Assembly: GCA_027063755.1 (NCBI GenBank)
Contig: JAMORD010000040.1
Span: forward strand, 1 to 48,162
Source: a bacterium
GTDB lineage: Bacteria; Coprothermobacterota; Coprothermobacteria; Coprothermobacterales; JAADFF01
Direction of reading: 5' to 3'
Length of the DNA stretch: 48,162 bases
The position numbers were made by a program, and so were the translations under genes. Shown one piece after another: positions 9,305 through 37,781 of the stretch (positions are counted from its first letter, which is position 1; each line of letters opens with the position of its first letter). The notes beneath the pieces were generated by a model. The model was given only the letters and a program-made list of their open reading frames with translations, ran no database searches and had not been told where the DNA came from.

Positions 9305-9861
9305 AGGGAGCAGCAGAGGAGATGTTAGAGAGCGGGAAAAAATGCACAAATATCAATGATGTTGTGGAGATTTTACCGGTAGATTACCTTATTGCAGGTG
9401 ACAAAAAGCATTCAGCAGAAGATTACCTGGTAGCTATTTTGTATATTGCTCGTAAGCGTGGCAAGTACGGTGGTTGTTGTCGTGCGAAGGAACTTGCTGA
9501 GGTGCTTGGGGTTAGTCGTTCTTCTGTTTCACAGGTTCTCAGAAGGTTGGCTAAGGCTGGCTATGTTGATTTTAAACCCTATGCCAGAAGCATTACATTG
9601 ACCGAGAAAGGTGCCCAACTTGCACAGAGTTTGCATGCACGACGTATTGTTGTTATGCTTATGGCTGATATTCTTGGTTTTACCGAAGAGCGATCAAAAG
9701 AGATAGCATGCTTTCTTGAGCATTTCATGAATGATGACGAAAGACGGGCCGTAGCGAGATTTATTTGCTTTATGCAGAATCATCCTGATATCATGAAAGA
9801 ATGGCTGGAGTTTAGAGGTGTAGATTTGGCAAAATTTACTTCTAAGATAAGAGAAGGATGA
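9289..9861 (+). CDS. DtxR/MntR-family metal-dependent repressor
   Basis: EDYLVAI, HTH AKELAEVLGVSRSSVSQVLRRL, ITLTEKG and ACFLEH motifs; start codon uncertain. Confidence 0.9.
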   Translation: MAEKIEGAAEEMLESGKKCTNINDVVEILPVDYLIAGDKKHSAEDYLVAILYIARKRGKYGGCCRAKELAEVLGVSRSSVSQVLRRLAKAGYVDFKPYARSITLTEKGAQLAQSLHARRIVVMLMADILGFTEERSKEIACFLEHFMNDDERRAVARFICFMQNHPDIMKEWLEFRGVDLAKFTSKIREG

Positions 9862-9881
9862 GGCTTAGGCCTCATCCTTCT
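9852..9881. terminator. Perfect 13-bp hairpin at a convergent junction, candidate bidirectional terminator
   Basis: AGAAGGATGAGGC-TTAG-GCCTCATCCTTCT spans the stop codons of both convergent genes. Confidence 0.6.
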
Positions 9882-12258
9882 TTAGTTCGGGTATATACTT
9901 GGCAGGGTCATCGCCTCTGAAAACTGTTCTTAGGTTGTCTATATTTTTGTTTAGTATTTCTATTGCTATTTTTTCAGAGACTTCTTTTATGAACTTGTCT
10001 TCATCTGTGAGATGCATAAATATGAATCTGGTATATGCTTTGACAAGTTTGTAAAACGCCATAAGATATGGGACAGGTATTTTGTAATCAAAATATTTTC
10101 TAATACCTCTGTAATTTTCTATCAGTTCTTTGTAGGCCTTTTCAAGGTGTGTTGGAACAATAGTAGATGCTCTGTGAACGGTGAGACTTATAGCATTGGG
10201 ATTTTCTGTGTAAACAGCAACACCGCCAATTATAAACATAGCCTTAGCAGATTTGTATATGAAAGGAGAGTCTGGTAGATTTTTCTGAATCTTTATGGAC
10301 ATATCTCTCAACGCATCTAACATTGTGGCAGCGATATCTATGCGATTGGATTTGATAAGTTCAACAGATAAGTCTAAGGTGAATGACAGAATAGCTTCCA
10401 ATGTCGGTACATAATCTGTTACTTGTTTGGTGAGTTTGCCTACTATGTGCGAAAGACCATCTTTGAGAATGAAGTTGTCTATTGTGGCTTTATGAACGAC
10501 TTCGTGCTTAGGATATAGATTTCTTATCATGCGGAAGTAAAAGCTTAGTATGAGAATGATAATCTTATTTTTTACATCTATGTTGTAATTACCTGTGATA
10601 AAGTCTCGTGAAAAGATATTCAACTTTGTGGCTATAACACGAGGGGTCATAGGATTTTGGGGGTTCTCTGTATAAAAATCTACTATGTGTCTGATAGATG
10701 AAATAGCAAGAATTAGTAGAGAGTTATTTTTGTTGATGATAAATGTTTTCAGGGCATTAATATAAATGTCAAAGATATTTTCGGCAATGCGTACTTCGCC
10801 ACTAATGTCGGCTACCCTAAAAATTGTTTCCATAAAGTAGAGTGTCTGTTTAACAAAATATGCATATTCTTTGCTGTTGTCGTTGTAAGAAAGATAACTT
10901 CTGAAATACTTCTTTATAATCGTCTCGGCAGTGGTGATATCGCTATCTAATGTGCTTTTCTTTACGATGTCAGAAAGTTCTTCAACTCCTTGAGCGGCTT
11001 TATCGTATTCACCAAGTTCAAGGTATAGATGTATTTCACGATTAATCTTATCGGCTATTACCTGAATATTAAGTATTTTTATGATGTGGTATACATATGC
11101 AAATAATAAGATGATATTACCGAACATGAGCCATAAATTCCAGTTCATCTGAGGAAGTGGTAGTGGAATATTGTCGTTTGTTCTACCAAGTAAAAGGAAT
11201 GAGTGAATAATGGTGAATGCAGATACGGAGTATACAACCATGTTCCACGGGTCTTTGAAGTAGTATGTTGAGACCTTGGGAGTATATTTAGAGGCCATCA
11301 TCTGAACAGCTACCATAGACATAGATATCATGACACCGACAAGAGCAGCAAGTGCTGTTGCTGTTGCAGAATAGGTATATCTGGCCGTATCTTGATCTCC
11401 CCAAAAGATGAAGTTAATGGGATGGTGTGGATTAGATGGCCAATATGGATATACTTTTACAGGTGGGGGCATGTATAGCTGGTATACCCAGATGATGTAT
11501 GTAATAAGTAGAAGGAAAAACATAATAACGGCGGCAGGTATAAGATGATCGTATTTTGTTGGTTTCCATAGCCTGCTAATGGTAGGTAACTCTCCTGTAG
11601 TATGATATTTTATAATGCGTTTGAGTCCATCTTTAACAGCTTTGCTCTGGCTGAGGAATTTTACTCCAAGTTTGTATGAACCATCTTCAAGAGGAATGAC
11701 ATTGCGTATTTCTGCTTTAACATAGATACTGCGTTTGCTGCTGCCTGGCATGGGGAATTTGAGGTACACGATATCTCCTTTACTGGGAATATTATTACTT
11801 ATAGCATCTTTATCTATAATTATTCCTGCTCCGTAAATAGAGAGGTCTGTTGTTCTACCTTTGGTAATTATCTTAGTGGAGCGTGGGAGAAGACCAAAAG
11901 ATTTTGTAATTTTGTAGATGTATACCTCTGTTTCTATGGGGATACGAACAGAATTTCTTACAATAGCCTCTACCTGTTTGATAAGTTTTAGTGCAAGTAT
12001 GGTTTGTGATGTGTCAGGAAGGTATATTTGAGCTTCGTATGTAAAAATACCCTCTTCTGTTTCAAAGCGAATTTTTATATATTCATCCCAACGATGAGAA
12101 GTAAGGTCAAAAGGTACTGCTAAATATACTATGTGCTCTTTATGATTGACATTGATAACAAGTAATTTACGAGGTTTTTCATTATTATCTTCGAAAACCT
12201 CAACATATTTACCAAGTTCAGGAAGGTGAACAAATATATCTTCGTGTTTTTCACTCAT
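9865..12258 (-). CDS. PilZ-domain / DUF2254-like membrane fusion protein
   Basis: N-terminal YcgR-like beta region, PilZ motifs RNSVR (RxxxR) and DLSIYG (DxSxxG), and YKLGVKF. About 4 TM helices including SMVAVQMMASKYTPK...FKDP (DUF2254-like), then a long helical tail. Confidence 0.75.
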   Translation of the reverse strand: MSEKHEDIFVHLPELGKYVEVFEDNNEKPRKLLVINVNHKEHIVYLAVPFDLTSHRWDEYIKIRFETEEGIFTYEAQIYLPDTSQTILALKLIKQVEAIVRNSVRIPIETEVYIYKITKSFGLLPRSTKIITKGRTTDLSIYGAGIIIDKDAISNNIPSKGDIVYLKFPMPGSSKRSIYVKAEIRNVIPLEDGSYKLGVKFLSQSKAVKDGLKRIIKYHTTGELPTISRLWKPTKYDHLIPAAVIMFFLLLITYIIWVYQLYMPPPVKVYPYWPSNPHHPINFIFWGDQDTARYTYSATATALAALVGVMISMSMVAVQMMASKYTPKVSTYYFKDPWNMVVYSVSAFTIIHSFLLLGRTNDNIPLPLPQMNWNLWLMFGNIILLFAYVYHIIKILNIQVIADKINREIHLYLELGEYDKAAQGVEELSDIVKKSTLDSDITTAETIIKKYFRSYLSYNDNSKEYAYFVKQTLYFMETIFRVADISGEVRIAENIFDIYINALKTFIINKNNSLLILAISSIRHIVDFYTENPQNPMTPRVIATKLNIFSRDFITGNYNIDVKNKIIILILSFYFRMIRNLYPKHEVVHKATIDNFILKDGLSHIVGKLTKQVTDYVPTLEAILSFTLDLSVELIKSNRIDIAATMLDALRDMSIKIQKNLPDSPFIYKSAKAMFIIGGVAVYTENPNAISLTVHRASTIVPTHLEKAYKELIENYRGIRKYFDYKIPVPYLMAFYKLVKAYTRFIFMHLTDEDKFIKEVSEKIAIEILNKNIDNLRTVFRGDDPAKYIPELKKDEA

Positions 12259-12272
12259 GCCTTTTTATCACC

Positions 12273-13658
12273 TCAGCTTACGGCTATATCATCTTCAGGC
12301 AGAGTATAAAGTTCTTTTGTTGGTGTGAAGATGTAGCCTGCTAAAATTGATATACTCCCAACTCTACCCATAAACATTGTTATTATTATTATAATCTTGC
12401 CGAGGCTATTAAGATGTGTTGTCAGTCCCCTTGACAGTCCCACTGTGCCTATAGCGGAGAATGCCTCAAAGAATATGTCTTCAAATGGGGCGTTAGGCAT
12501 GGCTATACTAAGGAACAATATGCTGATGCTAACTGTTATGAGTTGAAGAATAAATATGGCGAGAGCCAGTCTTACAGTGTCTTCTGCTATACGTCTGCTT
12601 CTCAGTATAACTGCTTTTTTGTTTTGCATGAAGTTTTGGAGATATTGAATAACTACTACTAATGTTGTTGTCTTTATACCACCAGCTGTACCACCGGGAG
12701 AGCCACCGACAAACATGAGAAATGTTATGAGCAGTATGCTGGGAAGCATCATTTTGCTCATATCCAGTGTGGCAAAACCGGCCGTTCTGGGTGTAACTGC
12801 CTGAAATAGCGATGCCCATATTTTTCCGCTCAGCGATAGATTGCCGATAGTATATGGGTTAATCCACTCAAATATGAGAAGCATAATGGCAGGAACGATA
12901 ATAAGTACCACTGTTGCCGATATAACAATGCGTGTATGAATAGATAGGTCGCTAATCTTCATGCGTCTGCCTTCACCTTTTAGCCCTGCTATAAACGATT
13001 TGGAATATTCAAGAAGCTCTTCCCATACAATAAATCCCAAACCGCCGGCAATAATGAGCCCCATAATAGTGAGGTTTATCAGAGGATCTGATACATAATC
13101 TGTAAGAGACTTAAAGCCTCCCATGATGTCAAATCCGGCATTGTTAAAAGCGGATACTGAATGAAATATGGATGCCCATAGCCCTTTTACTGGTCCGAAT
13201 TGGGGAATGAATCTAAAACCCAGTAAAATGGCGCCTATGATTTCAAAAAATAGAGATACTTTTAGGGAAAATAGCAGTAGGTTAGTGACACCACCAAAGT
13301 CTGGTTTGTTGAGCTGAACAGCTACAGATATTTTCTGTCTCAAACCTACTTGTTCCCCACGGGCAAGGTATATCAGGGTCATCATGGTGACATATCCCAG
13401 ACCGCCTATCTGTATGAGAAGTAGAATGACAAGCTGACCGAAAAATGAAAAGTATGTTCCCGTGTCCTTGACGACAAGTCCCGTGACACATACAGCCGAT
13501 GTTGATGTAAAGAGGGCATCAAGGAAACTTGTCAGTTTCCCGTGTGCCTGTGATATGGGAAGCATAAGAAGAGCGGTTCCCGTTAGTATGACGGCTAAAA
13601 AGCCCATTACAATATTACGTCTTGCCTCTGTTACTGGATCCAATTTACCCTTTGCCAT
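12273..13658 (-). CDS. ktrB: Ktr/Trk-family K+ channel membrane subunit
   Basis: Four pore-loop glycines (SAVCVTGL, SAFNNAGF, TPRTAGF, SAIGTVGL), plus GGTAGGIK and MFMGRVG. Confidence 0.93.
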   Translation of the reverse strand: MAKGKLDPVTEARRNIVMGFLAVILTGTALLMLPISQAHGKLTSFLDALFTSTSAVCVTGLVVKDTGTYFSFFGQLVILLLIQIGGLGYVTMMTLIYLARGEQVGLRQKISVAVQLNKPDFGGVTNLLLFSLKVSLFFEIIGAILLGFRFIPQFGPVKGLWASIFHSVSAFNNAGFDIMGGFKSLTDYVSDPLINLTIMGLIIAGGLGFIVWEELLEYSKSFIAGLKGEGRRMKISDLSIHTRIVISATVVLIIVPAIMLLIFEWINPYTIGNLSLSGKIWASLFQAVTPRTAGFATLDMSKMMLPSILLITFLMFVGGSPGGTAGGIKTTTLVVVIQYLQNFMQNKKAVILRSRRIAEDTVRLALAIFILQLITVSISILFLSIAMPNAPFEDIFFEAFSAIGTVGLSRGLTTHLNSLGKIIIIITMFMGRVGSISILAGYIFTPTKELYTLPEDDIAVS

Positions 13659-13659
13659 A

Positions 13660-14901
13660 TTACCACCTACTTAGATACTCTGTTTGCTCCTTTGTGAGAG
13701 AGTCTATTTTAATGTTCATGCTCTGCAGTTTATATTTGGCTATCTCTATGCTGTACTCGTGTGGGAAATCATATACTTTGTTTTCCAGTTTTCCTCTGTT
13801 TTCTATGAGATATGCAAGTGCAAGCATTTGGGCAGAGAAGGAGAGGTCCATAATCTCTGCTGGGTGTCCATCACCTACAACAAGGTTGACAAGTCTTCCT
13901 TCACCAAGTAGATATACGGTATTACCACTTTTTAGCTTGTATGCCATAACATTGTCTCGGGCTTCCCACTTCTCTACGGCATTTTCTTCTAAATACTTGA
14001 CATCTATCTCTACATTGAAGTGTCCGGCGTTGCTCAGTATGGCTCCATCTTTCATGGATTCCAGATGTCTACCGGTAATGACATCTTTCATGCCTGTTGT
14101 CGTAACAAAGATATCTCCAATCTTTGCCGCCTCATCCATTGTCATGACTTGGTGGCCATCGTATATAGCCTCAAGGGCCCTAATGGGGTCTACCTCAGTG
14201 ACTATGGTATGGGCTCCCATGCCCTTCATGACCCTGGCAACCCCACGTCCGCACCAGCCATAACCGGCTATGACTACGGTTTTACCTGCAATGAGTAGAT
14301 TGGTGCCTCTGGATATGGCAACAGGCACACTTTCACCAGTTCCGTACCTGTTGTCAAACAAATGCTTGATGTATGCATCGTTGAGTGCTATAAGGGGATA
14401 TGGCAGTTTGCCGGCCTGGGCAAGGGCACGGGCTCTATGCACACCTGTTGTTGTCTCTTCAGATGCTCCCCATATGTCCTTTGATAGATGTGGCATTTCA
14501 TTGGCTACGGTCGTTGTCAAGTCAAGACCGTCGTCAAGTATGAGGTTGGGTTCTATGCGAAGAACATTCCTCTGGTTTTCCATATATTCTTCTGGTGTCT
14601 CTCCACGCCATGCAAACACCTCAATACCGGCATCGGCAAGGGCTGCTGCCACATCATCTTGGGTAGACAGTGGATTTGACGATGTTATGGCAACAAATGC
14701 CCCCAATTCTTTTAGTGTTAGGGCAAGATATGCTGTCTTTGCCTCAAGGTGTATAGACATACCTATGCGAACGCCTTTGAATATGCCTTTTTCTTCAAGT
14801 GCTTTTTTGATAAGGGGCATAACTTTCATGTGAGATTTTACCCAGTTTATCTTTTTCCAACCATGTGGTGCCAGTGATATATCTTTAACATGTGCCACCA
14901 T
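13660..14901 (-). CDS. ahcY: Adenosylhomocysteinase
   Basis: HLEAKTA, SNPLSTQDD, EETTTGV, KHLFDNRYGTG, GYGWCGRG, GRLVNL and GHP motifs. ATG at 14901 follows GGAGGG. Confidence 0.98.
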   Translation of the reverse strand: MVAHVKDISLAPHGWKKINWVKSHMKVMPLIKKALEEKGIFKGVRIGMSIHLEAKTAYLALTLKELGAFVAITSSNPLSTQDDVAAALADAGIEVFAWRGETPEEYMENQRNVLRIEPNLILDDGLDLTTTVANEMPHLSKDIWGASEETTTGVHRARALAQAGKLPYPLIALNDAYIKHLFDNRYGTGESVPVAISRGTNLLIAGKTVVIAGYGWCGRGVARVMKGMGAHTIVTEVDPIRALEAIYDGHQVMTMDEAAKIGDIFVTTTGMKDVITGRHLESMKDGAILSNAGHFNVEIDVKYLEENAVEKWEARDNVMAYKLKSGNTVYLLGEGRLVNLVVGDGHPAEIMDLSFSAQMLALAYLIENRGKLENKVYDFPHEYSIEIAKYKLQSMNIKIDSLTKEQTEYLSRW

Positions 14902-18698: not shown

Positions 18699-20357
18699 AT
18701 GGCAAATGTGCTTAAGCTCAGTTTGTATACCTCTGAGCCACCGAGCGGTTGGATTTATGACTTATATGAAAATGAAGAGCACCCTGACCGCGGGTGGCTC
18801 TTTTATGCTTTAAGAGGTGTTGAGGAAGGTGATGTTGACGCTCTTGTAGAAGAATTTTTAGACGGTTCTGATGACATGTTTGAGTTTATTAAGCAGTGGC
18901 TTGAGTCTCTTCATAAGAAAAAGCGTGAAGAGGGGAAGAAGGCACAAGGTGTTATACTGTGGTTTTCTGAAGGGAAGGTGCATGCCTTTCCTTTAGGAGG
19001 TCTTCATGTCTTCCAAAATGCCCCACATAGAAAACGATGCTTGACAGACCCTATATACGACTTTACTCATTATCTTAGATGGAAAGTATTTTCTCCCGGA
19101 GATGAAAAGTATAGAGTATCGTACTCTATATATCCCATTACCGGTGAAGATAGCTTTGACATCATGCTTAAAGATGGCTCTAAACCATGGCGTATTACTG
19201 TAGATGCATTTCAAGATGTGTGGAAATCGGGGGAGAAGAAAAAGAAGAAAAGAGTGTCTCCCAAGATTGCAGCACGGAAATATGGACACAGGGCATCGGT
19301 GTGGGTGACATTACTGCTTATATTCTTTGTTGGAGTGTGGTATATTTGGTATCATCATTCGCTACAACTTAACACGCAGAAGCAGGTAGAACATACATCT
19401 ACTCAGACAACATCGTCAACGGGTAGTGCTACAGGCTCAGGTATCAGTTTTATTGAACCTTTGTCTCTTTGGAGTCTTTCTTCTCTTGCCGATATAGCCA
19501 CTCAGACCTATACCGATGTAAAACTACCATTTGGCACAGTATGGGATATGGCCTCTGTGAAGTGGACCGATGGCACATATTTCATTGCATTTACCAACGA
19601 TGTGGGGTCTGCACTGAGAATAGCCTTTGACATTTCTGGTGATATTCCCAAGTATCTTGATAAGTGGCATAAGGCTACGACGATTTCCAGATCGGCCATT
19701 GAGGGTGTTAACTGGAATAGCCCTAAGACATTTGTTAGCCCGGATTTGGCTGGAGGAAAACTTGTTCTAAAGTCTACATTTGTCAATTCCTCTTGGGGAA
19801 CATTTGATGGTTTGTCTGATGCTTTTCTTGACAAGTTAAGAGATGTCTCTATACAGGCAGAGAACTACGATACGACAATTGCTTTACTTACTGACGATAA
19901 AGTATATCTTTACAGCGGTCGTGTTGGTGGTACATTTAAACAGCTGAGGATGCCTATTGCGTTGCCAGAAGGTTATAAAGGCGAAAGAATATATCTCTCA
20001 CCTGCTGGTGATGTGTATGTTCTTGCTTATAGAAATGTCAGAGAGAAGAAGAAATATGCGCTTGTGGTTATGAGGGCATCAGATGATTTTGTACCCGATA
20101 ATCTCATTATAGAGAAGACGGAAAAGTTGCTTGATAACCTTAGTGCCACATTTATTGGGGCACCGTATTTGTGGAAAGAGGGTGTGGTAGCATTCCCAGT
20201 GTCTGGTCCTAAAGATGGTTTGGCACTGATTAATATAGTGACATGGAAGGCTACACTGATTGAGGGAAGAGGTGTAATATATCCTCTGAGTGATGACAAA
20301 CTTGGGGTTGTATTTCAATCATTCTTCTCGTTGTGGGATTTAGAAAGGAGGGACTAA
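18699..20357 (+). CDS. Single-pass membrane protein: PP2C-like (degenerate) N-terminus and beta-rich C-terminal domain
   Basis: Basic stretch KKKKKR before the TM helix SVWVTLLLIFFVGVWYIWY, a Ser/Thr linker, then repeated short beta-strand segments; GGAGGAG SD. Confidence 0.8.
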   Translation: MANVLKLSLYTSEPPSGWIYDLYENEEHPDRGWLFYALRGVEEGDVDALVEEFLDGSDDMFEFIKQWLESLHKKKREEGKKAQGVILWFSEGKVHAFPLGGLHVFQNAPHRKRCLTDPIYDFTHYLRWKVFSPGDEKYRVSYSIYPITGEDSFDIMLKDGSKPWRITVDAFQDVWKSGEKKKKKRVSPKIAARKYGHRASVWVTLLLIFFVGVWYIWYHHSLQLNTQKQVEHTSTQTTSSTGSATGSGISFIEPLSLWSLSSLADIATQTYTDVKLPFGTVWDMASVKWTDGTYFIAFTNDVGSALRIAFDISGDIPKYLDKWHKATTISRSAIEGVNWNSPKTFVSPDLAGGKLVLKSTFVNSSWGTFDGLSDAFLDKLRDVSIQAENYDTTIALLTDDKVYLYSGRVGGTFKQLRMPIALPEGYKGERIYLSPAGDVYVLAYRNVREKKKYALVVMRASDDFVPDNLIIEKTEKLLDNLSATFIGAPYLWKEGVVAFPVSGPKDGLALINIVTWKATLIEGRGVIYPLSDDKLGVVFQSFFSLWDLERRD

Positions 20358-32847: not shown

Positions 32848-34098
32848 TTGGTTAGAGTGAGACCATATTGGTACGAAGAGAGAACATGTCCTATATGTGG
32901 TAACACATTTCAAGTGAAGATTTTAAGGTCGGGTTATGCTTATAGAGTGCTTGCTATAGATGTTGATATGTTTCCCCATGTAGATGGGGAACATCCTGTA
33001 CTTTATGAAGTTGATATGTGTCCCAAATGTGGCTATGCATATTACAGAAATGAGTTTGATAGGCCGCCAATAAAAGACAGGGCAGAACTTATAAAGTTTC
33101 TTGTAAAGGTGCCGGCATCTGATAAGGTTGTGGCGGCAAAACCCGATAGAGATCCTGAAGGGGCTTTAAGGATTTATCAGTGGGTATATAATCTCCTTGA
33201 ATTTACAAATGCTCCTAAACATAAAATAGGACTTACACTTCATAAGATGGCGTGGATATACAGACTTATAGGAAATGATGAGAAAGAGAAGGAATATCTT
33301 GGCAAAGCATTGCAGATGTATGAAGAGGCTTTATCAAGCACAAAAGAGCGTTATCCTTCAAAAGAAATGTTTGTGAAGGTTATATATTCTGCCGGTGTTA
33401 TTGCCTATATGCTGGGGTATTACGAGAAGGCCGTAAAATACCTTAATGACCTACTGAAGCTGGAACAATCTGGTCAGAAGTTATCGCCGGTGATGAGAAA
33501 ACATGTGTTTGATGTGTGGCAAGATTTAAGGGGTAAGGTTGCGTCGGCAGAAAATATAGATATTGGTAAAGAGGAGAAAAGTGCTGAGGATATATCCGAA
33601 GATGCTATGCTCTCAGCGCTGAGAAATGCTTATCGCACACTGGAGGGTAAACTATCTGTAAAAGAAATGAATATATCATCTGATAAAAAATCGTTTTATA
33701 CGCCTTTAAAGAGATTCTATTTGGCAATGGCTCATCTTTCATTTTTGGAACACTTCAATAAGATTGATGCCGGAAGTTGGAAGGATTTTATGAAGATGTT
33801 TTACCAGGTAATGGAATTTTTTGGTAGAACGGGAGCACGATATGCAGGTATTTCTTCAGGCTATGAAATGTTATTTGATGGCAGAAATGCTACATCGTGT
33901 ATTATTATTAGTCCTGTAAGTATGGTAGAAGATTATGTGAAACAGTGTGGTGGACATACTAAAAATATAATGGTAGTTGGTATAATTGAAACAGAGGAAG
34001 ATGAAGCACTTGCTTCTAATCTTGGATTTGAGGTGGTTGATGAAGGAATGTGGCTTTACGATGGACGCCTTTATCCGTGCCTTCTCTTCAAAAAGTGA
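32848..34098 (+). CDS. DUF2225-like Zn-ribbon/TPR protein with an extra C-terminal domain
   Basis: CPICG...D.D...YEVDMCPKCGYA, AWIYR and TPR-like helices; first gene of the che cluster. Confidence 0.8.
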   Translation: MVRVRPYWYEERTCPICGNTFQVKILRSGYAYRVLAIDVDMFPHVDGEHPVLYEVDMCPKCGYAYYRNEFDRPPIKDRAELIKFLVKVPASDKVVAAKPDRDPEGALRIYQWVYNLLEFTNAPKHKIGLTLHKMAWIYRLIGNDEKEKEYLGKALQMYEEALSSTKERYPSKEMFVKVIYSAGVIAYMLGYYEKAVKYLNDLLKLEQSGQKLSPVMRKHVFDVWQDLRGKVASAENIDIGKEEKSAEDISEDAMLSALRNAYRTLEGKLSVKEMNISSDKKSFYTPLKRFYLAMAHLSFLEHFNKIDAGSWKDFMKMFYQVMEFFGRTGARYAGISSGYEMLFDGRNATSCIIISPVSMVEDYVKQCGGHTKNIMVVGIIETEEDEALASNLGFEVVDEGMWLYDGRLYPCLLFKK

Positions 34099-34104
34099 GA
34101 AAGG

Positions 34105-34569
34105 GTGGTGGTGCAGATGAATGTGGGCATGGTAGTGTTTGGGCTTAAAGATAAGTATATGGCTGCCCCGATTGAGTATGTCAAAGAGATCTTAAAACTT
34201 GACAAGATTACCAGACTCCCCAATGCACCGGTTATCGTTAAAGGACTCATGAATGTTCGTGGTATCTTGCTTCCCGTTGTGGATGGTAGAAAATTGTTTG
34301 ATGTGGAAGATAACGAAGAACTAACAGAAGAACAGAAAAAACAGATGCGTATACTTTGGGTATCTACCGGTAGAGAAGGAGAAGAGGATATAGGTATACT
34401 TGTTGACCATATACTTGGTATTTTATTTGTAGATGAAGAAGAACTCAAAGAAGTTCCGGAAGGAATGGAAGGAGCAGAAAAATTTAAGGCAAGCCTTCTT
34501 TGGAATGATAAATTTGTGCTCATGATAGATATTGATAATCTTCTTAGAGGAAGGGGGGACGGTAGATGA
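34105..34569 (+). CDS. cheW: Chemotaxis coupling protein
   Basis: VKEI, ITRLPNAP, GLMNVRG.LPVVD and GILVD motifs. Confidence 0.95.
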   Translation: MVVQMNVGMVVFGLKDKYMAAPIEYVKEILKLDKITRLPNAPVIVKGLMNVRGILLPVVDGRKLFDVEDNEELTEEQKKQMRILWVSTGREGEEDIGILVDHILGILFVDEEELKEVPEGMEGAEKFKASLLWNDKFVLMIDIDNLLRGRGDGR

Positions 34570-36662
34570 GCGAGATAGATATAAATGAATACCTCCCTGT
34601 GTTTATTGATGAGGCAAGGGAATATCTTCAGATTCTCAATGAAAAACTTCTTGTGTTAGAGGAGCATCCTGGTGATCTTGATGCTATTAGGGAGATTTTC
34701 CGTGCAGCTCATACGCTGAAAGGCATGTCTGCAACTATGGGGTTTACCCATATGGCAGAGGTTACCCACCTTATGGAGAGTGCCCTTCAGCCGTTTAGAG
34801 ATAAAGAAGGTGCTGTGCTTCCAGAGGAGCTTATAGATATGCTATTTAGGGTTCTTGATTATCTTCAGGCACAGGTTGATAACCTTGCTGCTGGTGGTGA
34901 TATTGAACCACCTGAGGAGGATCTTCTAAATGCACTAAAAGAGGCTGCATCGGGGAAAGTACCCACGGGTACAGCATCTGCATCTGAGAAAAAAGAAGAG
35001 AAACAAGAGGCTAAAAAAGAGACATCAGGAGAGCCTATACAGTTTGAGCTTAACGATTATGACATCCTTGTTATTGAAGATGCCGTAAAAGCTGGTAATG
35101 TTGTTGCCAAGATACATGTCCGTATGCGCGAAGGTACCATGATGAAGAGTGTACGTGCCTACATGGTTGTAAAAACCATTGAAGATCATGAGGGAGAGGT
35201 TGTTAAATCCGTTCCCCCTGCGGAAGATATTGAACAAGAAAAGTTTGATAGAGATATATTCTTCTTGGCCATATTCCCACAGGGAACAAATGTTGATGAG
35301 GTAAAGAAGAAAATTGAGTTAATAGCAGAAATTGAAAGTGTAGAGGTGGAAGTTATAAAAGATGTTGAAGCTCTGAAACAGACCGAGGAAAAGCCTACAG
35401 AAGAGAAAAAAGAAGAAAAGCATGGAGAAGTACAGCCGCAAGTACAAGCTCAGAAGGCTGCTGCCAAGGGAGAAAAGAAGGAGAAAAAAGGAGAGCATAA
35501 GGAAAAACATCACATAGAACAGCTTATTCGTGTACCACTGTCTAAGCTTGATAAACTCATGAACCTTGTAGGTGAGCTTGTCATCTACAGAACAGAACTT
35601 CAGGTGGCCAAAGAGAAAAACTCTCAGGAGGCCCTTGAAGGTGTTATTGAGCGTATAGGTAGATCTATCATTGAGCTGCAGAATGAGGTTATGTCTATGC
35701 GAATGACTCCCATGGCCTTTGTTTTTCGTAGATTCCCCAGAATGGTAAGGGACCTTGCTAAGAGGTTTGGTAAAAAGGTTGAGTTTATTATAGAAGGTGA
35801 AGAGACAGAAATAGACAGATCTATTCTTGATAAGCTGGGTGATCCCCTTGTTCACCTGCTGAGAAATGCCATTGACCACGGCATTGAAACACCCGAAGAG
35901 AGAGTAGCTAAGGGGAAACCTGAAGAAGGACACTTATGGCTTAGAGCGTATGCTGAAGGTAACTATGTATTCATAGAGGTTGAAGATGATGGTAGGGGTA
36001 TTGACCCAGATAAAGTTAAGCAGAAGGCAATAGAGAAAGGGCTTATATCCCCTGAAGAAGCAGAGACTCTTACCAAGAGGGAAATTTATGAGCTTCTATT
36101 TAGACCTGGTTTCTCCACAGCTGAGAAAGTTACCGATGTATCTGGTAGAGGTGTAGGGCTTGATGTTGTTAAGGCTGTTATAGAACAATTGGGAGGTAGT
36201 ATTGAAATACAGTCTGAACTTGGTAAAGGCACGAAGTTTATTTTAAGACTGCCTCTGACACTGGCTATTATTACAGCACTGCTTGTTACCGTTGGTGATG
36301 AGGTATATGCTATACCTCTTGGTAGTGTTGATGAGGTTGTTGAGAAAGACGACCGTATGAAGAAGACTCAAGTTGGAGAGGTGTTCATACTCAGAGGTGA
36401 TGTGCTACCTGTTTACTATCTCAAAGATGTATTCAAAGTGCCAACAGCCGGTGAGGGACAACATCTTGTTGTTGTTAGAAGTGCTGGTACTCGTGCGGCT
36501 ATTGTAATAGATGACCTTATAGGACAGCAAGAAATCGTTATCAAGCCACTTAAAGGCAAATATGTTGGTGTACCGTATATCTCTGGTGCTACAATATTAG
36601 GTGATGGTACTATTGCGCTGATTACAGATCTGACACAGCTGCTTATGGGAGGTAGAGAATAG
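34566..36662 (+). CDS. cheA: Chemotaxis histidine kinase
   Basis: Hpt FRAAHTLKG, P2 domain, HLLRNAIDHG, DDGRG, SGRGVGLDVV and a C-terminal CheW-like domain. Confidence 0.99.
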   Translation: MSEIDINEYLPVFIDEAREYLQILNEKLLVLEEHPGDLDAIREIFRAAHTLKGMSATMGFTHMAEVTHLMESALQPFRDKEGAVLPEELIDMLFRVLDYLQAQVDNLAAGGDIEPPEEDLLNALKEAASGKVPTGTASASEKKEEKQEAKKETSGEPIQFELNDYDILVIEDAVKAGNVVAKIHVRMREGTMMKSVRAYMVVKTIEDHEGEVVKSVPPAEDIEQEKFDRDIFFLAIFPQGTNVDEVKKKIELIAEIESVEVEVIKDVEALKQTEEKPTEEKKEEKHGEVQPQVQAQKAAAKGEKKEKKGEHKEKHHIEQLIRVPLSKLDKLMNLVGELVIYRTELQVAKEKNSQEALEGVIERIGRSIIELQNEVMSMRMTPMAFVFRRFPRMVRDLAKRFGKKVEFIIEGEETEIDRSILDKLGDPLVHLLRNAIDHGIETPEERVAKGKPEEGHLWLRAYAEGNYVFIEVEDDGRGIDPDKVKQKAIEKGLISPEEAETLTKREIYELLFRPGFSTAEKVTDVSGRGVGLDVVKAVIEQLGGSIEIQSELGKGTKFILRLPLTLAIITALLVTVGDEVYAIPLGSVDEVVEKDDRMKKTQVGEVFILRGDVLPVYYLKDVFKVPTAGEGQHLVVVRSAGTRAAIVIDDLIGQQEIVIKPLKGKYVGVPYISGATILGDGTIALITDLTQLLMGGRE

Positions 36663-37300
36663 TGGATTTTGATAAGCTGATAACCCAAAACCCTCTGTTT
36701 ATAGATGCCTTTAGGGAGATAAATAATATAGGCTCTGGTAATGCTGCTTCGGCAGTGGCTTCAATGATAGGGCAAAAGGTTGATATTACTGTTCCATCTG
36801 TTATTGTTGAGAAAATACCCAATGTCATTGAGAAAATAGGTGCGCCTGACGAAGTTGCCTTTGGTGTGCAGTTAACATATGAGGGGGAACTTGATGGTGT
36901 TATTCTTCTTGTATTTAAAGAAGACACCGTAAAAAAATTAGCAAAGCTATTGATGGGTATGGAAGTGGAAGAGATAGACGATATGACGATCTCTATGATT
37001 CAGGAGATAGGCAATATCGTTTCGGCCTCGTTTCTTAATGCTATAGCTACATTCTTTAGTGTGCAAATATTGCCTTCACCACCATCTGCCGCATATGATA
37101 TGTTACAGGCTTTGCTCAATCTGGCACTTGCCAGTATTGCCGCAGAAACTGACTATGCGTTGGTGGTGAAGACAGAATTTGTTATAGGTGATGATGAAAC
37201 CAATAAGGCAGAAGGATGGATAGTTAATGTTCCTTCGCCTGACAGCTTCATTAAACTACTAAAACTTATGGGACTGCTGGGTGATGAGGATGTTGAATAA
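36662..37300 (+). CDS. cheC: CheY-P phosphatase CheC
   Basis: Two ExxN motifs (REINNIGSG, QEIGNIVSA); adjacent to cheD. Confidence 0.93.
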   Translation: MDFDKLITQNPLFIDAFREINNIGSGNAASAVASMIGQKVDITVPSVIVEKIPNVIEKIGAPDEVAFGVQLTYEGELDGVILLVFKEDTVKKLAKLLMGMEVEEIDDMTISMIQEIGNIVSASFLNAIATFFSVQILPSPPSAAYDMLQALLNLALASIAAETDYALVVKTEFVIGDDETNKAEGWIVNVPSPDSFIKLLKLMGLLGDEDVE

Positions 37301-37781
37301 TAAGAATATTGTGCATGTAGGTATCGGTCAAAGCTTTGTGCTCAAGAAGACAGGAATATTAATGGCAATAGGCTTGGGGTCATGTGTGGGGGTGGGTATG
37401 TACGATCCCGTTGAAAAAATCGGTGGGATGGTACATATTCTACTTCCCGATTCTAAAGTGGGTAAACCAACCGACTTACCGGGTAAGTTTGCAGATAAAG
37501 GTGTGCCACATTTGCTTGATATGATGCTTGAGGCTGGTGCCAAGAAAGAGAGACTCATTGTAAAGATCGCCGGTGGTGCCAGTATGTTTAAGACATCTCA
37601 ATCGCCTATTATGGATATAGGTTCAAGAAATGTTGCCGCAGTGAAGAAAGTGCTTAAGGAGTTGGGTTTACCGCTACACGGTGAGGCAGTAGGAGGTAAC
37701 GAGGGAAAAACCTTTATTTTAGATGTTGCCACCGGCAAATTTTATGTCAGAACAGTTAGGGGAGGCCAGGTAGAAATATAG
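37281..37781 (+). CDS. cheD: Chemoreceptor glutamine deamidase
   Basis: GLGSCVG, GGMVHILLP, KIAGGA and IGSRN motifs. Confidence 0.96.
   Translation: MMRMLNNKNIVHVGIGQSFVLKKTGILMAIGLGSCVGVGMYDPVEKIGGMVHILLPDSKVGKPTDLPGKFADKGVPHLLDMMLEAGAKKERLIVKIAGGASMFKTSQSPIMDIGSRNVAAVKKVLKELGLPLHGEAVGGNEGKTFILDVATGKFYVRTVRGGQVEI

Follow-up and report, generated by a model that had tools for sequence, protein, structure and literature searches.

The closest described counterparts of the sensor considered here are the YcgR-type proteins (E. coli YcgR, B. subtilis MotI/YpfA (5VX6), P. putida PP4397 and V. cholerae PlzD), soluble adaptors of about 230 amino acids (aa) in which a PilZN-like domain is followed by a PilZ domain with RxxxR and DxSxxG motifs. 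In BcsA (cellulose synthase) and Alg44 a cytoplasmic PilZ domain is carried on a membrane protein, which is switched by cyclic di-GMP (c-di-GMP). The window analysed here, the whole 48,162 nucleotides (nt) of contig JAMORD010000040.1 (assembly GCA_027063755.1; Coprothermobacterales, JAADFF01), encodes a 797-aa protein, hereafter the fusion, that has the same pair of domains and the same motifs as the YcgR-type proteins; in the fusion, however, they form the N-terminus of an integral membrane protein with a 400-aa tail, and the module is just ~17-19% identical to the YcgR-type paralogues of its own genome. As in BcsA and Alg44, the PilZ domain is predicted on the cytoplasmic side of a membrane protein, but the fusion has no glycosyltransferase or periplasmic adaptor domain, possesses a PilZN domain, and has an uncharacterised four-helix module as its output. 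These membrane helices match positions 7-168 of the DUF2254 profile (PF10011/IPR018723), whereas the C-terminal half of that profile is absent and a predicted alpha-solenoid stands in its place, as in a long-tailed DUF2254 subfamily; 59/59 scanned relatives lack PilZ. Compared with the KtrAB systems of B. subtilis and V. alginolyticus, the neighbouring gene encodes a typical KtrB and the genome also has KtrA and a diadenylate cyclase, but in this genus ktrA lies apart from ktrB, KtrA consists naturally of two units in tandem, and the fusion is not an RCK protein.

The fusion is a single intact open reading frame (ORF) in the order PilZN-PilZ, four membrane helices and alpha-solenoid tail (Table 1). 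A search of 5.8 billion proteins, in which 7993 candidates of 438-1395 aa were scored, yielded four further full-length clusters, which are 72-88% identical to the fusion. The closest orthologue, P0003, is named 'DUF2254 domain-containing protein [bacterium 3DAC]', and the accessible text of PMC10356935 describes this bacterium as motile, flagellated, deep-branching and a cultured thermophile; for this reason, the P0003 protein should be stable enough for cryo-electron microscopy. A frameshift or an assembly chimera was ruled out, given that the frame is open in three genomes and in one metagenome contig; metagenomes hold at least one contig with the fusion locus, with no upstream DNA on it. 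Among 31 genomes the fusion was matched in three, all of the window's genus, namely the window's own genome (G000) and its congeners G001 and G002. The PilZ-DUF2254 architecture was found only in this genus (3/13 phylum genomes, five sequence clusters), and DUF2254 itself was not found in the other 10 of the 13 phylum genomes, several of them incomplete, its matches being in the same three. When 1.84 billion representatives were searched with a profile, 313 matched, and among the best 150 listed one was full-length, while the best stretch lay in the membrane module or tail for 148 and in PilZ for one; scanning 60 of the 149 partial matches identified 59 with DUF2254 without PilZ and one with PilZ without DUF2254. 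NCBIfam had no match for the fusion. In the accessible passages of the literature on DUF2254/IPR018723 PilZ is not mentioned, and listings of work on PilZ or c-di-GMP with ion channels, KtrB or potassium, whose coverage excludes subscription journals and supplementary files, contain no such fusion, while the supplementary files of a PilZ survey might list the architecture. An earlier note on this DNA had called the architecture undescribed, and these sequence and literature searches agree with it: the fusion is real and apparently undescribed, a PilZ-effector architecture confined to one genus. Recent horizontal transfer is only weakly indicated by base composition (GC 36.0%, in the lowest 4% of 693 long ORFs; GC at third codon positions in the 27th percentile), and a role as a defence effector was rejected, with PADLOC matching 0/71 members of alignment A3 at E<=0.001.

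The Pfam PilZ match of the fusion scores 34.4 bits (cut-off 22.5, E 2.9e-8), with 39-45 bits across the three genus genomes, and in the genome search it extends to profile positions 3-100, from nt 11958. The motif residues R101, R105, D138, S140 and G143 are invariant in all five orthologues, compared with only 46/123 invariant PilZ positions, and the C-terminal GxxF of the module is likewise invariant in 5/5. Over residues 12-212 the fusion can be aligned with ten two-domain PilZ proteins that occur on their own in the genus and its sister family (HHalign 91.8%, E 7.3e-7). No Pfam PilZN/PilZNR match was obtained for aa 1-97, where the Atlas leads are below 0.9. A profile mixing fusion N-termini and paralogues matches 5VX6 over both domains at E 2e-9, a match that the paralogues may drive, and the PilZ domains of Alg44 and cellulose synthase are weak matches of the same profile. 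The YcgR-like N-terminus and intact PilZ motifs read in the earlier note are borne out by HHalign, Pfam and the 5/5 conservation of the motifs, and both PilZ and DUF2254 (61.7 bits) are above their Pfam cut-offs in the profile check proposed there. From these motifs, it is probable that the PilZN-PilZ module binds c-di-GMP. Position 100, immediately before RxxxR, is V in the fusion and V or I in its orthologues, compared with R or K in the stand-alone paralogues. For PlzD, the accessible text of bioRxiv 2020.02.11.943704 puts monomeric c-di-GMP binding down to the loss of the basic residue at this place. Given that a hydrophobic residue precedes RxxxR as in PlzD, the fusion probably binds one c-di-GMP per module (1:1); a weakened c-di-GMP site would be the alternative. 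It could also be that the module is a degenerate, c-di-GMP-blind relic and that the protein works like its stand-alone DUF2254-like relatives. The module is the least conserved region of the fusion, the basic residue before RxxxR is missing, and BLAST found no stand-alone relative of it, either within the same genome or in a set of 206 short candidates, which is consistent with a module that has diverged too far. Nonetheless, five motif residues and GxxF are invariant in 5/5 orthologues over a background of 37% (roughly 0.37^5, or ~0.007), and a blind relic is considered unlikely.

The supply of the ligand was assessed from the domain content of related genomes. The three genus genomes have 16, 16 and 19 GGDEF matches and 4 PilZ matches each, against 2 and 5 GGDEF matches and 1 PilZ match in two genomes of the sister family. 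Because both are raised in the genus, c-di-GMP should be available to the fusion. These 16-19 GGDEF matches in G000, G001 and G002, many of them in ORFs of 1000-1200 aa, fall in genomes of 1.4-1.6 Mb, for which the predicted c-di-GMP network is very dense.

The DUF2254 match of the fusion (cut-off 28.8) covers positions 7-168 of 368 only, and the profile is not fully covered as it is by canonical members, which span 1-367. Four hydrophobic helices agree with the AlphaFold helices at aa 239-262, 289-324, 337-359 and 368-395, and the model (pLDDT 78.6 for aa 222-797 and 85.5 for aa 222-451) places an all-helical tail after them. The four or so transmembrane (TM) helices and the DUF2254-like signature of the earlier note are confirmed by Pfam and AlphaFold for the N-terminal half of DUF2254 only, and the long helical tail noticed there is a predicted alpha-solenoid. 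Since four helices lie between them, the PilZ module and the solenoid are on the same side of the membrane, which we infer to be the cytoplasm. Within aa 283-400 (TM2-4), 109/118 positions are invariant among the five orthologues, compared with 57% in the tail. TM2, which is long, rich in small residues and ends in Q319..Y325, is the most conserved helix across 134 relatives, with half of its residues small or polar, and a series R..S..Q/T..S/T..Q..Y is kept across bacteria and archaea. Structure matches of the tail are generic, to HEAT/ARM and designed solenoids; the best VIA match of the membrane module (Z 9.7, rmsd 3.2, 109 aligned) is to generic helical bundles. The PDB sequence search returned nothing for A1 and mainly designed helical repeats for A7.

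The membrane module and tail also occur without the sensor. P0008 from Collibacillus consists of these two parts alone and aligns with aa 284-756 of the fusion (E 1.9e-24), and because such stand-alone proteins exist, the membrane module and tail work without PilZ. They belong to a long-tailed subfamily of ~500-600 aa in Alicyclobacillaceae and other lineages, and the nearest Atlas clusters of the fusion are DUF2254 (0.94). In 39 Bacillota loci the common neighbours are NFACT/RqcH (35), pyrF (28), a phosphoribosyltransferase (25) and a Glu/Leu/Phe/Val dehydrogenase (25); the Alicyclobacillaceae long-tailed genes (L066-L104) adjoin NFACT/RqcH in 35/39, often after the pyr operon, and this adjacency is probably family synteny. 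Some long-tailed relatives lie beside signalling genes, namely a response regulator, a CHASE2 cyclase with an HD-domain gene, and an FHA protein. Among six loci of canonical full-length DUF2254, one gene lies behind mscS (L125), one behind betT and one near a K+ channel and an antiporter, and three (including L126) have no transport neighbour. The betT-DUF2254 pair is on an enterobacterial plasmid (L124:2791-6146), and 1621 plasmid records carry a DUF2254 match, Klebsiella accounting for 1230 of these. In the accessible literature no established function of DUF2254 was found; of the available passages, one treats predicted knots (PMC11184937), another gives a 'mechanochannel' label derived from STRING (PMC12440251), and a third guesses at an orphan enzyme (PMC3377989).

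A hint on how these modules assemble comes from P0179, a protein of 3441 aa and the only long protein returned by the fusion-family profile (E 2.4e-124; 1 of 7991 candidates). It contains five tandem long-tailed DUF2254-like modules (full-module iE 1e-24 to 1e-32), and a membrane-only profile finds exactly five domains in it, at 18.8-35.3 bits, the controls staying at <=12.9 bits (100 block shuffles) and 10.5 bits (other ORFs of G000). Concatenated channels are represented by the four-repeat Nav/Cav channels and by KtrB itself. By analogy with these, the five-copy concatemer suggests that the DUF2254-type membrane module would form a pentamer.

From these predicted features we tentatively favor, with somewhat less than even confidence, a c-di-GMP-regulated ring of DUF2254-type modules, probably five-fold, that possibly conducts an ion or small solute and would act independently of KtrB. 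In such a protein, c-di-GMP would bind the cytoplasmic PilZN-PilZ modules, their ligand-induced closure would be relayed through a linker of roughly 20 residues into TM1, and the membrane modules would assemble as a homo-oligomeric ring, a pentamer with the conserved TM2 at its axis, passing an ion or small solute under the control of c-di-GMP. Such a protein may have originated when a stand-alone long-tailed DUF2254-like gene entered the ancestor of the genus and, in a lineage whose c-di-GMP network had expanded, joined a YcgR-type paralogue; the resulting gene would have ended up downstream of ktrB, at the site from which a rearrangement had taken ktrA away. That the fusion is a c-di-GMP-controlled membrane protein in its own right had been offered as an alternative in the earlier note, and it fits the predicted domains, the motifs and the separate KtrA. 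The bolder version, a c-di-GMP-gated pentameric channel of unsolved fold in which DUF2254-type modules make up a widespread unrecognised family of five-fold pores, is considered rather unlikely.

Several observations weigh against a conducting ring. A ring of DUF2254-type modules need not be a pore, and the five-fold argument comes from one protein, P0179. The helical stripe of small and polar residues in TM2 is not significant (p 0.32; p 0.32-0.82 for TM1-4), and the membrane module has no clear match to a solved fold, Foldseek giving 0 at E<=0.001. None of six long-tailed or partial loci, whose neighbours are mixed, has a channel neighbour, and none of the frequent neighbours in the 39 Bacillota loci is a transport gene; transport-related neighbours occur in just 3/6 canonical loci, hints that may not carry over to a fusion with only the N-terminal half of DUF2254. 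The PilZ module is also the fastest-changing part of the fusion (37% invariant versus 92% in the membrane module), and it lacks the Arg/Lys that stand-alone paralogues carry before RxxxR. A complex prediction with four copies of the membrane module counts neither for nor against a ring; it gave a median of 0.36, with the mark at 0.42 and the controls at 0.00.

The same features may instead describe a membrane-anchored c-di-GMP receptor or scaffold that transports nothing, in which the helices anchor or oligomerise the protein and c-di-GMP sets the binding of a partner at the PilZ domain or the solenoid. The tail is a HEAT/ARM-like solenoid, typically protein-binding, and some long-tailed relatives adjoin signalling genes. 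Characterised YcgR-type proteins bind FliG/FliM, MotC or MotA, according to the accessible text of bioRxiv 2020.02.11.943704. The genome carries flagellar and chemotaxis genes, and candidate partners would be, for example, the flagellar motor, a pilus or a signalling protein. Nonetheless, a plain anchor needs neither the 92% invariance of TM2-4 nor the R..S..Q/T..S/T..Q..Y series, and one YcgR-type paralogue already lies within what we take, from the sequences of its genes, to be a flagellar/chemotaxis operon, so that the role of motor brake already has a candidate. This scaffold is also improbable in our judgement, although worth keeping in view.

That a c-di-GMP sensor, apparently intact, is naturally joined to the membrane module implies a switchable DUF2254 module, and it supplies a ligand with which DUF2254, a large family without known function, can be tested. 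If the favored ring conducts, it would be a c-di-GMP-gated channel, of which the listings of the open literature on PilZ/c-di-GMP ion channels contain no case. If the pentameric channel is true, the genus would have put a five-fold pore family under second-messenger control through a grafted YcgR-type sensor, giving the first ligand handle for a family that occurs as stand-alone proteins in bacteria and archaea and elsewhere as one chain of five copies. The reach of this is limited by the narrow distribution of the fusion, in one genus and five sequence clusters.

Table 1. Features of the fusion gene and of the gene block in which it lies (positions in the window).
Feature	Position	Strand	Support
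PilZN-PilZ / DUF2254-like 4-TM / alpha-solenoid fusion gene (P0001), 797 aa	9865..12258	-	ORF, Pfam, intact orthologues at 72-88% identity
YcgR-N-like (PilZN-type) domain, aa 1-97	11968..12258	-	HHalign, Atlas leads 0.85-0.86
PilZ domain, aa 98-220	11599..11967	-	Pfam PF07238 above cut-off
RxxxR motif RNSVR, aa 101-105 (R101, R105)	11944..11958	-	Invariant in 5/5 orthologues
D-x-S-x-x-G motif DLSIYG, aa 138-143 (D138, S140, G143)	11830..11847	-	Invariant in 5/5 orthologues
Four-helix membrane module, aa 239-395, N-terminal half of DUF2254	11074..11544	-	Pfam, hydrophobicity, AlphaFold
Cytoplasmic alpha-solenoid tail (predicted), aa 398-797	9868..11067	-	AlphaFold pLDDT 78.6, HEAT/ARM/designed-repeat matches
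ktrB, 461 aa, only TrkH/KtrB-family gene of G000	12273..13658	-	Pfam TrkH, genome search
ahcY (S-adenosylhomocysteine hydrolase), first gene of the block	13660..14901	-	Pfam AdoHcyase
Perfect 13-bp hairpin spanning the stop codons at which the fusion and a DtxR/MntR-like gene converge	9852..9881	.	-23.2 kcal/mol

The order ahcY, ktrB and fusion, with gaps of 1 nt and 14 nt, stands as described in the earlier note. The start of ahcY is an ATG at 14901 with a GGAGGG site in front of it, and the hairpin behind the fusion (z -6.1; 0/200 shuffles equally stable) is the likely terminator of the block. A promoter scan was at background, with 16 found versus 18.1 expected. RNA-seq contigs from two runs of one study cover the G002 orthologue of the fusion with no indel or frame difference, and they bridge the ktrB/fusion junction; these contigs hold no information on strand, level or single transcripts, and the fusion and ktrB are probably co-transcribed. 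Tight spacing as a sign of functional coupling was ruled out, since spacing of <=14 nt is found in 29/37 co-oriented neighbour pairs and the block is not above this background of the window. The gene ahcY does not adjoin ktrB in 4/4 other phylum genomes tested, and it is for this reason a newcomer beside it.

The ktrB product matches B. subtilis KtrB at E 3e-91 and comes from the single TrkH-family gene of G000, TrkH being matched in 13/13 phylum genomes. The earlier note had described a KtrA-less KtrB with the fusion as its c-di-GMP-sensing partner, and had named a ktrA elsewhere in the genome as an observation that would speak against this. No RCK domain is present among the 42 window proteins scanned, and to that extent the description holds; the genome-wide search for ktrA/trkA, however, found KtrA on contig C196, as a 454-aa protein of two units, each with GLGRFG, whose best PDB matches are to B. 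subtilis KtrA and whose gene gives the only PF02254 matches over the cut-off in G000. The genome therefore has both a KtrB-type membrane subunit and a KtrA-type RCK subunit, and the fusion has no RCK_N (TrkA_N, PF02254) match. Tandem KtrA is present in both congeners, at 88-96% identity per half and hence in 3/3 genus genomes, instead of the single ~218-aa KtrA of the rest of the phylum. Its halves (L002:229-1593 in G000 contig C196, L013 and L014) are 33% identical, with a 9-residue insertion in the second, and such a tandem would give an obligate alternating RCK ring. A diadenylate cyclase is also encoded in G000.

The two genes are adjacent in 9/10 other phylum genomes; in the tenth, G007 (78% complete), only part of ktrB and no clear ktrA were recognised. 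In the sister-family genomes G003 and G004 the order is gcv genes, an aminotransferase gene, ktrB-ktrA and pncB-eno-oxidoreductase-tatD, with metG next in G004, whereas in the genus the tandem ktrA abuts pncB-eno-oxidoreductase-tatD-metG and ktrB lies near the gcv genes, divergent from them; these gene names are presumed from the sequences, with orthology by BLAST to G000. Given that the flanking genes are kept on each side, a rearrangement split ktrB from ktrA in the genus. A KtrA-less KtrB was ruled out by the tandem KtrA together with this synteny, which explains the separation.

It is still conceivable that the fusion senses c-di-GMP for KtrB, replacing KtrA or acting alongside it. The fusion sits 11-14 nt behind ktrB in the three genomes with upstream DNA, in the position that ktrA has elsewhere in the phylum, the two genes probably share a transcript and a terminator, in the genus the last residue of KtrB is changed and KtrA takes the unusual form of a tandem, and canonical DUF2254 genes are sometimes beside osmoregulatory transporters. 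However, KtrA is present in all three genus genomes and can, as far as its sequence goes, account for the gating of KtrB, and KtrB keeps the C-terminal tail that, according to the accessible text of PMC4714889, makes lateral contact with KtrA in B. subtilis. In B. subtilis, KtrB depends on KtrC, whose gene belongs to a separate operon (accessible text of PMC11067040). In 20 kb of G002, 13/13 recognisable genes are collinear with the window, and because the whole stretch is collinear the ktrB-fusion adjacency is one inherited event; the linkage to ktrB that was to be checked is thus seen in 3/3 genus genomes but counts once. No KtrB, KtrA or fusion-PilZ relative was found by BLAST within up to 5 kb in the 39 stand-alone loci, several of which are truncated, and the functionally unrelated ahcY sits even closer to ktrB. 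A fusion serving KtrB is for these reasons very unlikely, ktrB is probably a neighbour of the fusion and not its partner, and the K+ uptake module suggested in the earlier note is not supported.

Some further features were seen at and around these genes. The genus KtrB ends in ...IAVS (window 12273-12305) and 8/8 other phylum KtrBs read end in ...VG, a change found together with the tandem KtrA. Two divergent YcgR-type PilZ genes stand in tandem, adjoining an ABC-transporter-like gene (L057:547-1818, L064 and L059; G000 contigs C82/C83), and one of them has DMNxxG instead of DxSxxG. A DUF2225/TPR gene lies immediately before cheW-cheA-cheC-cheD at window 32848-37781, and the sister family has a similar gene close to its one PilZ gene. 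Between thrS and gcvT, at window 18699-20357, an ORF of 552 aa with a probable single membrane helix and no Pfam match is 90% identical in G002.

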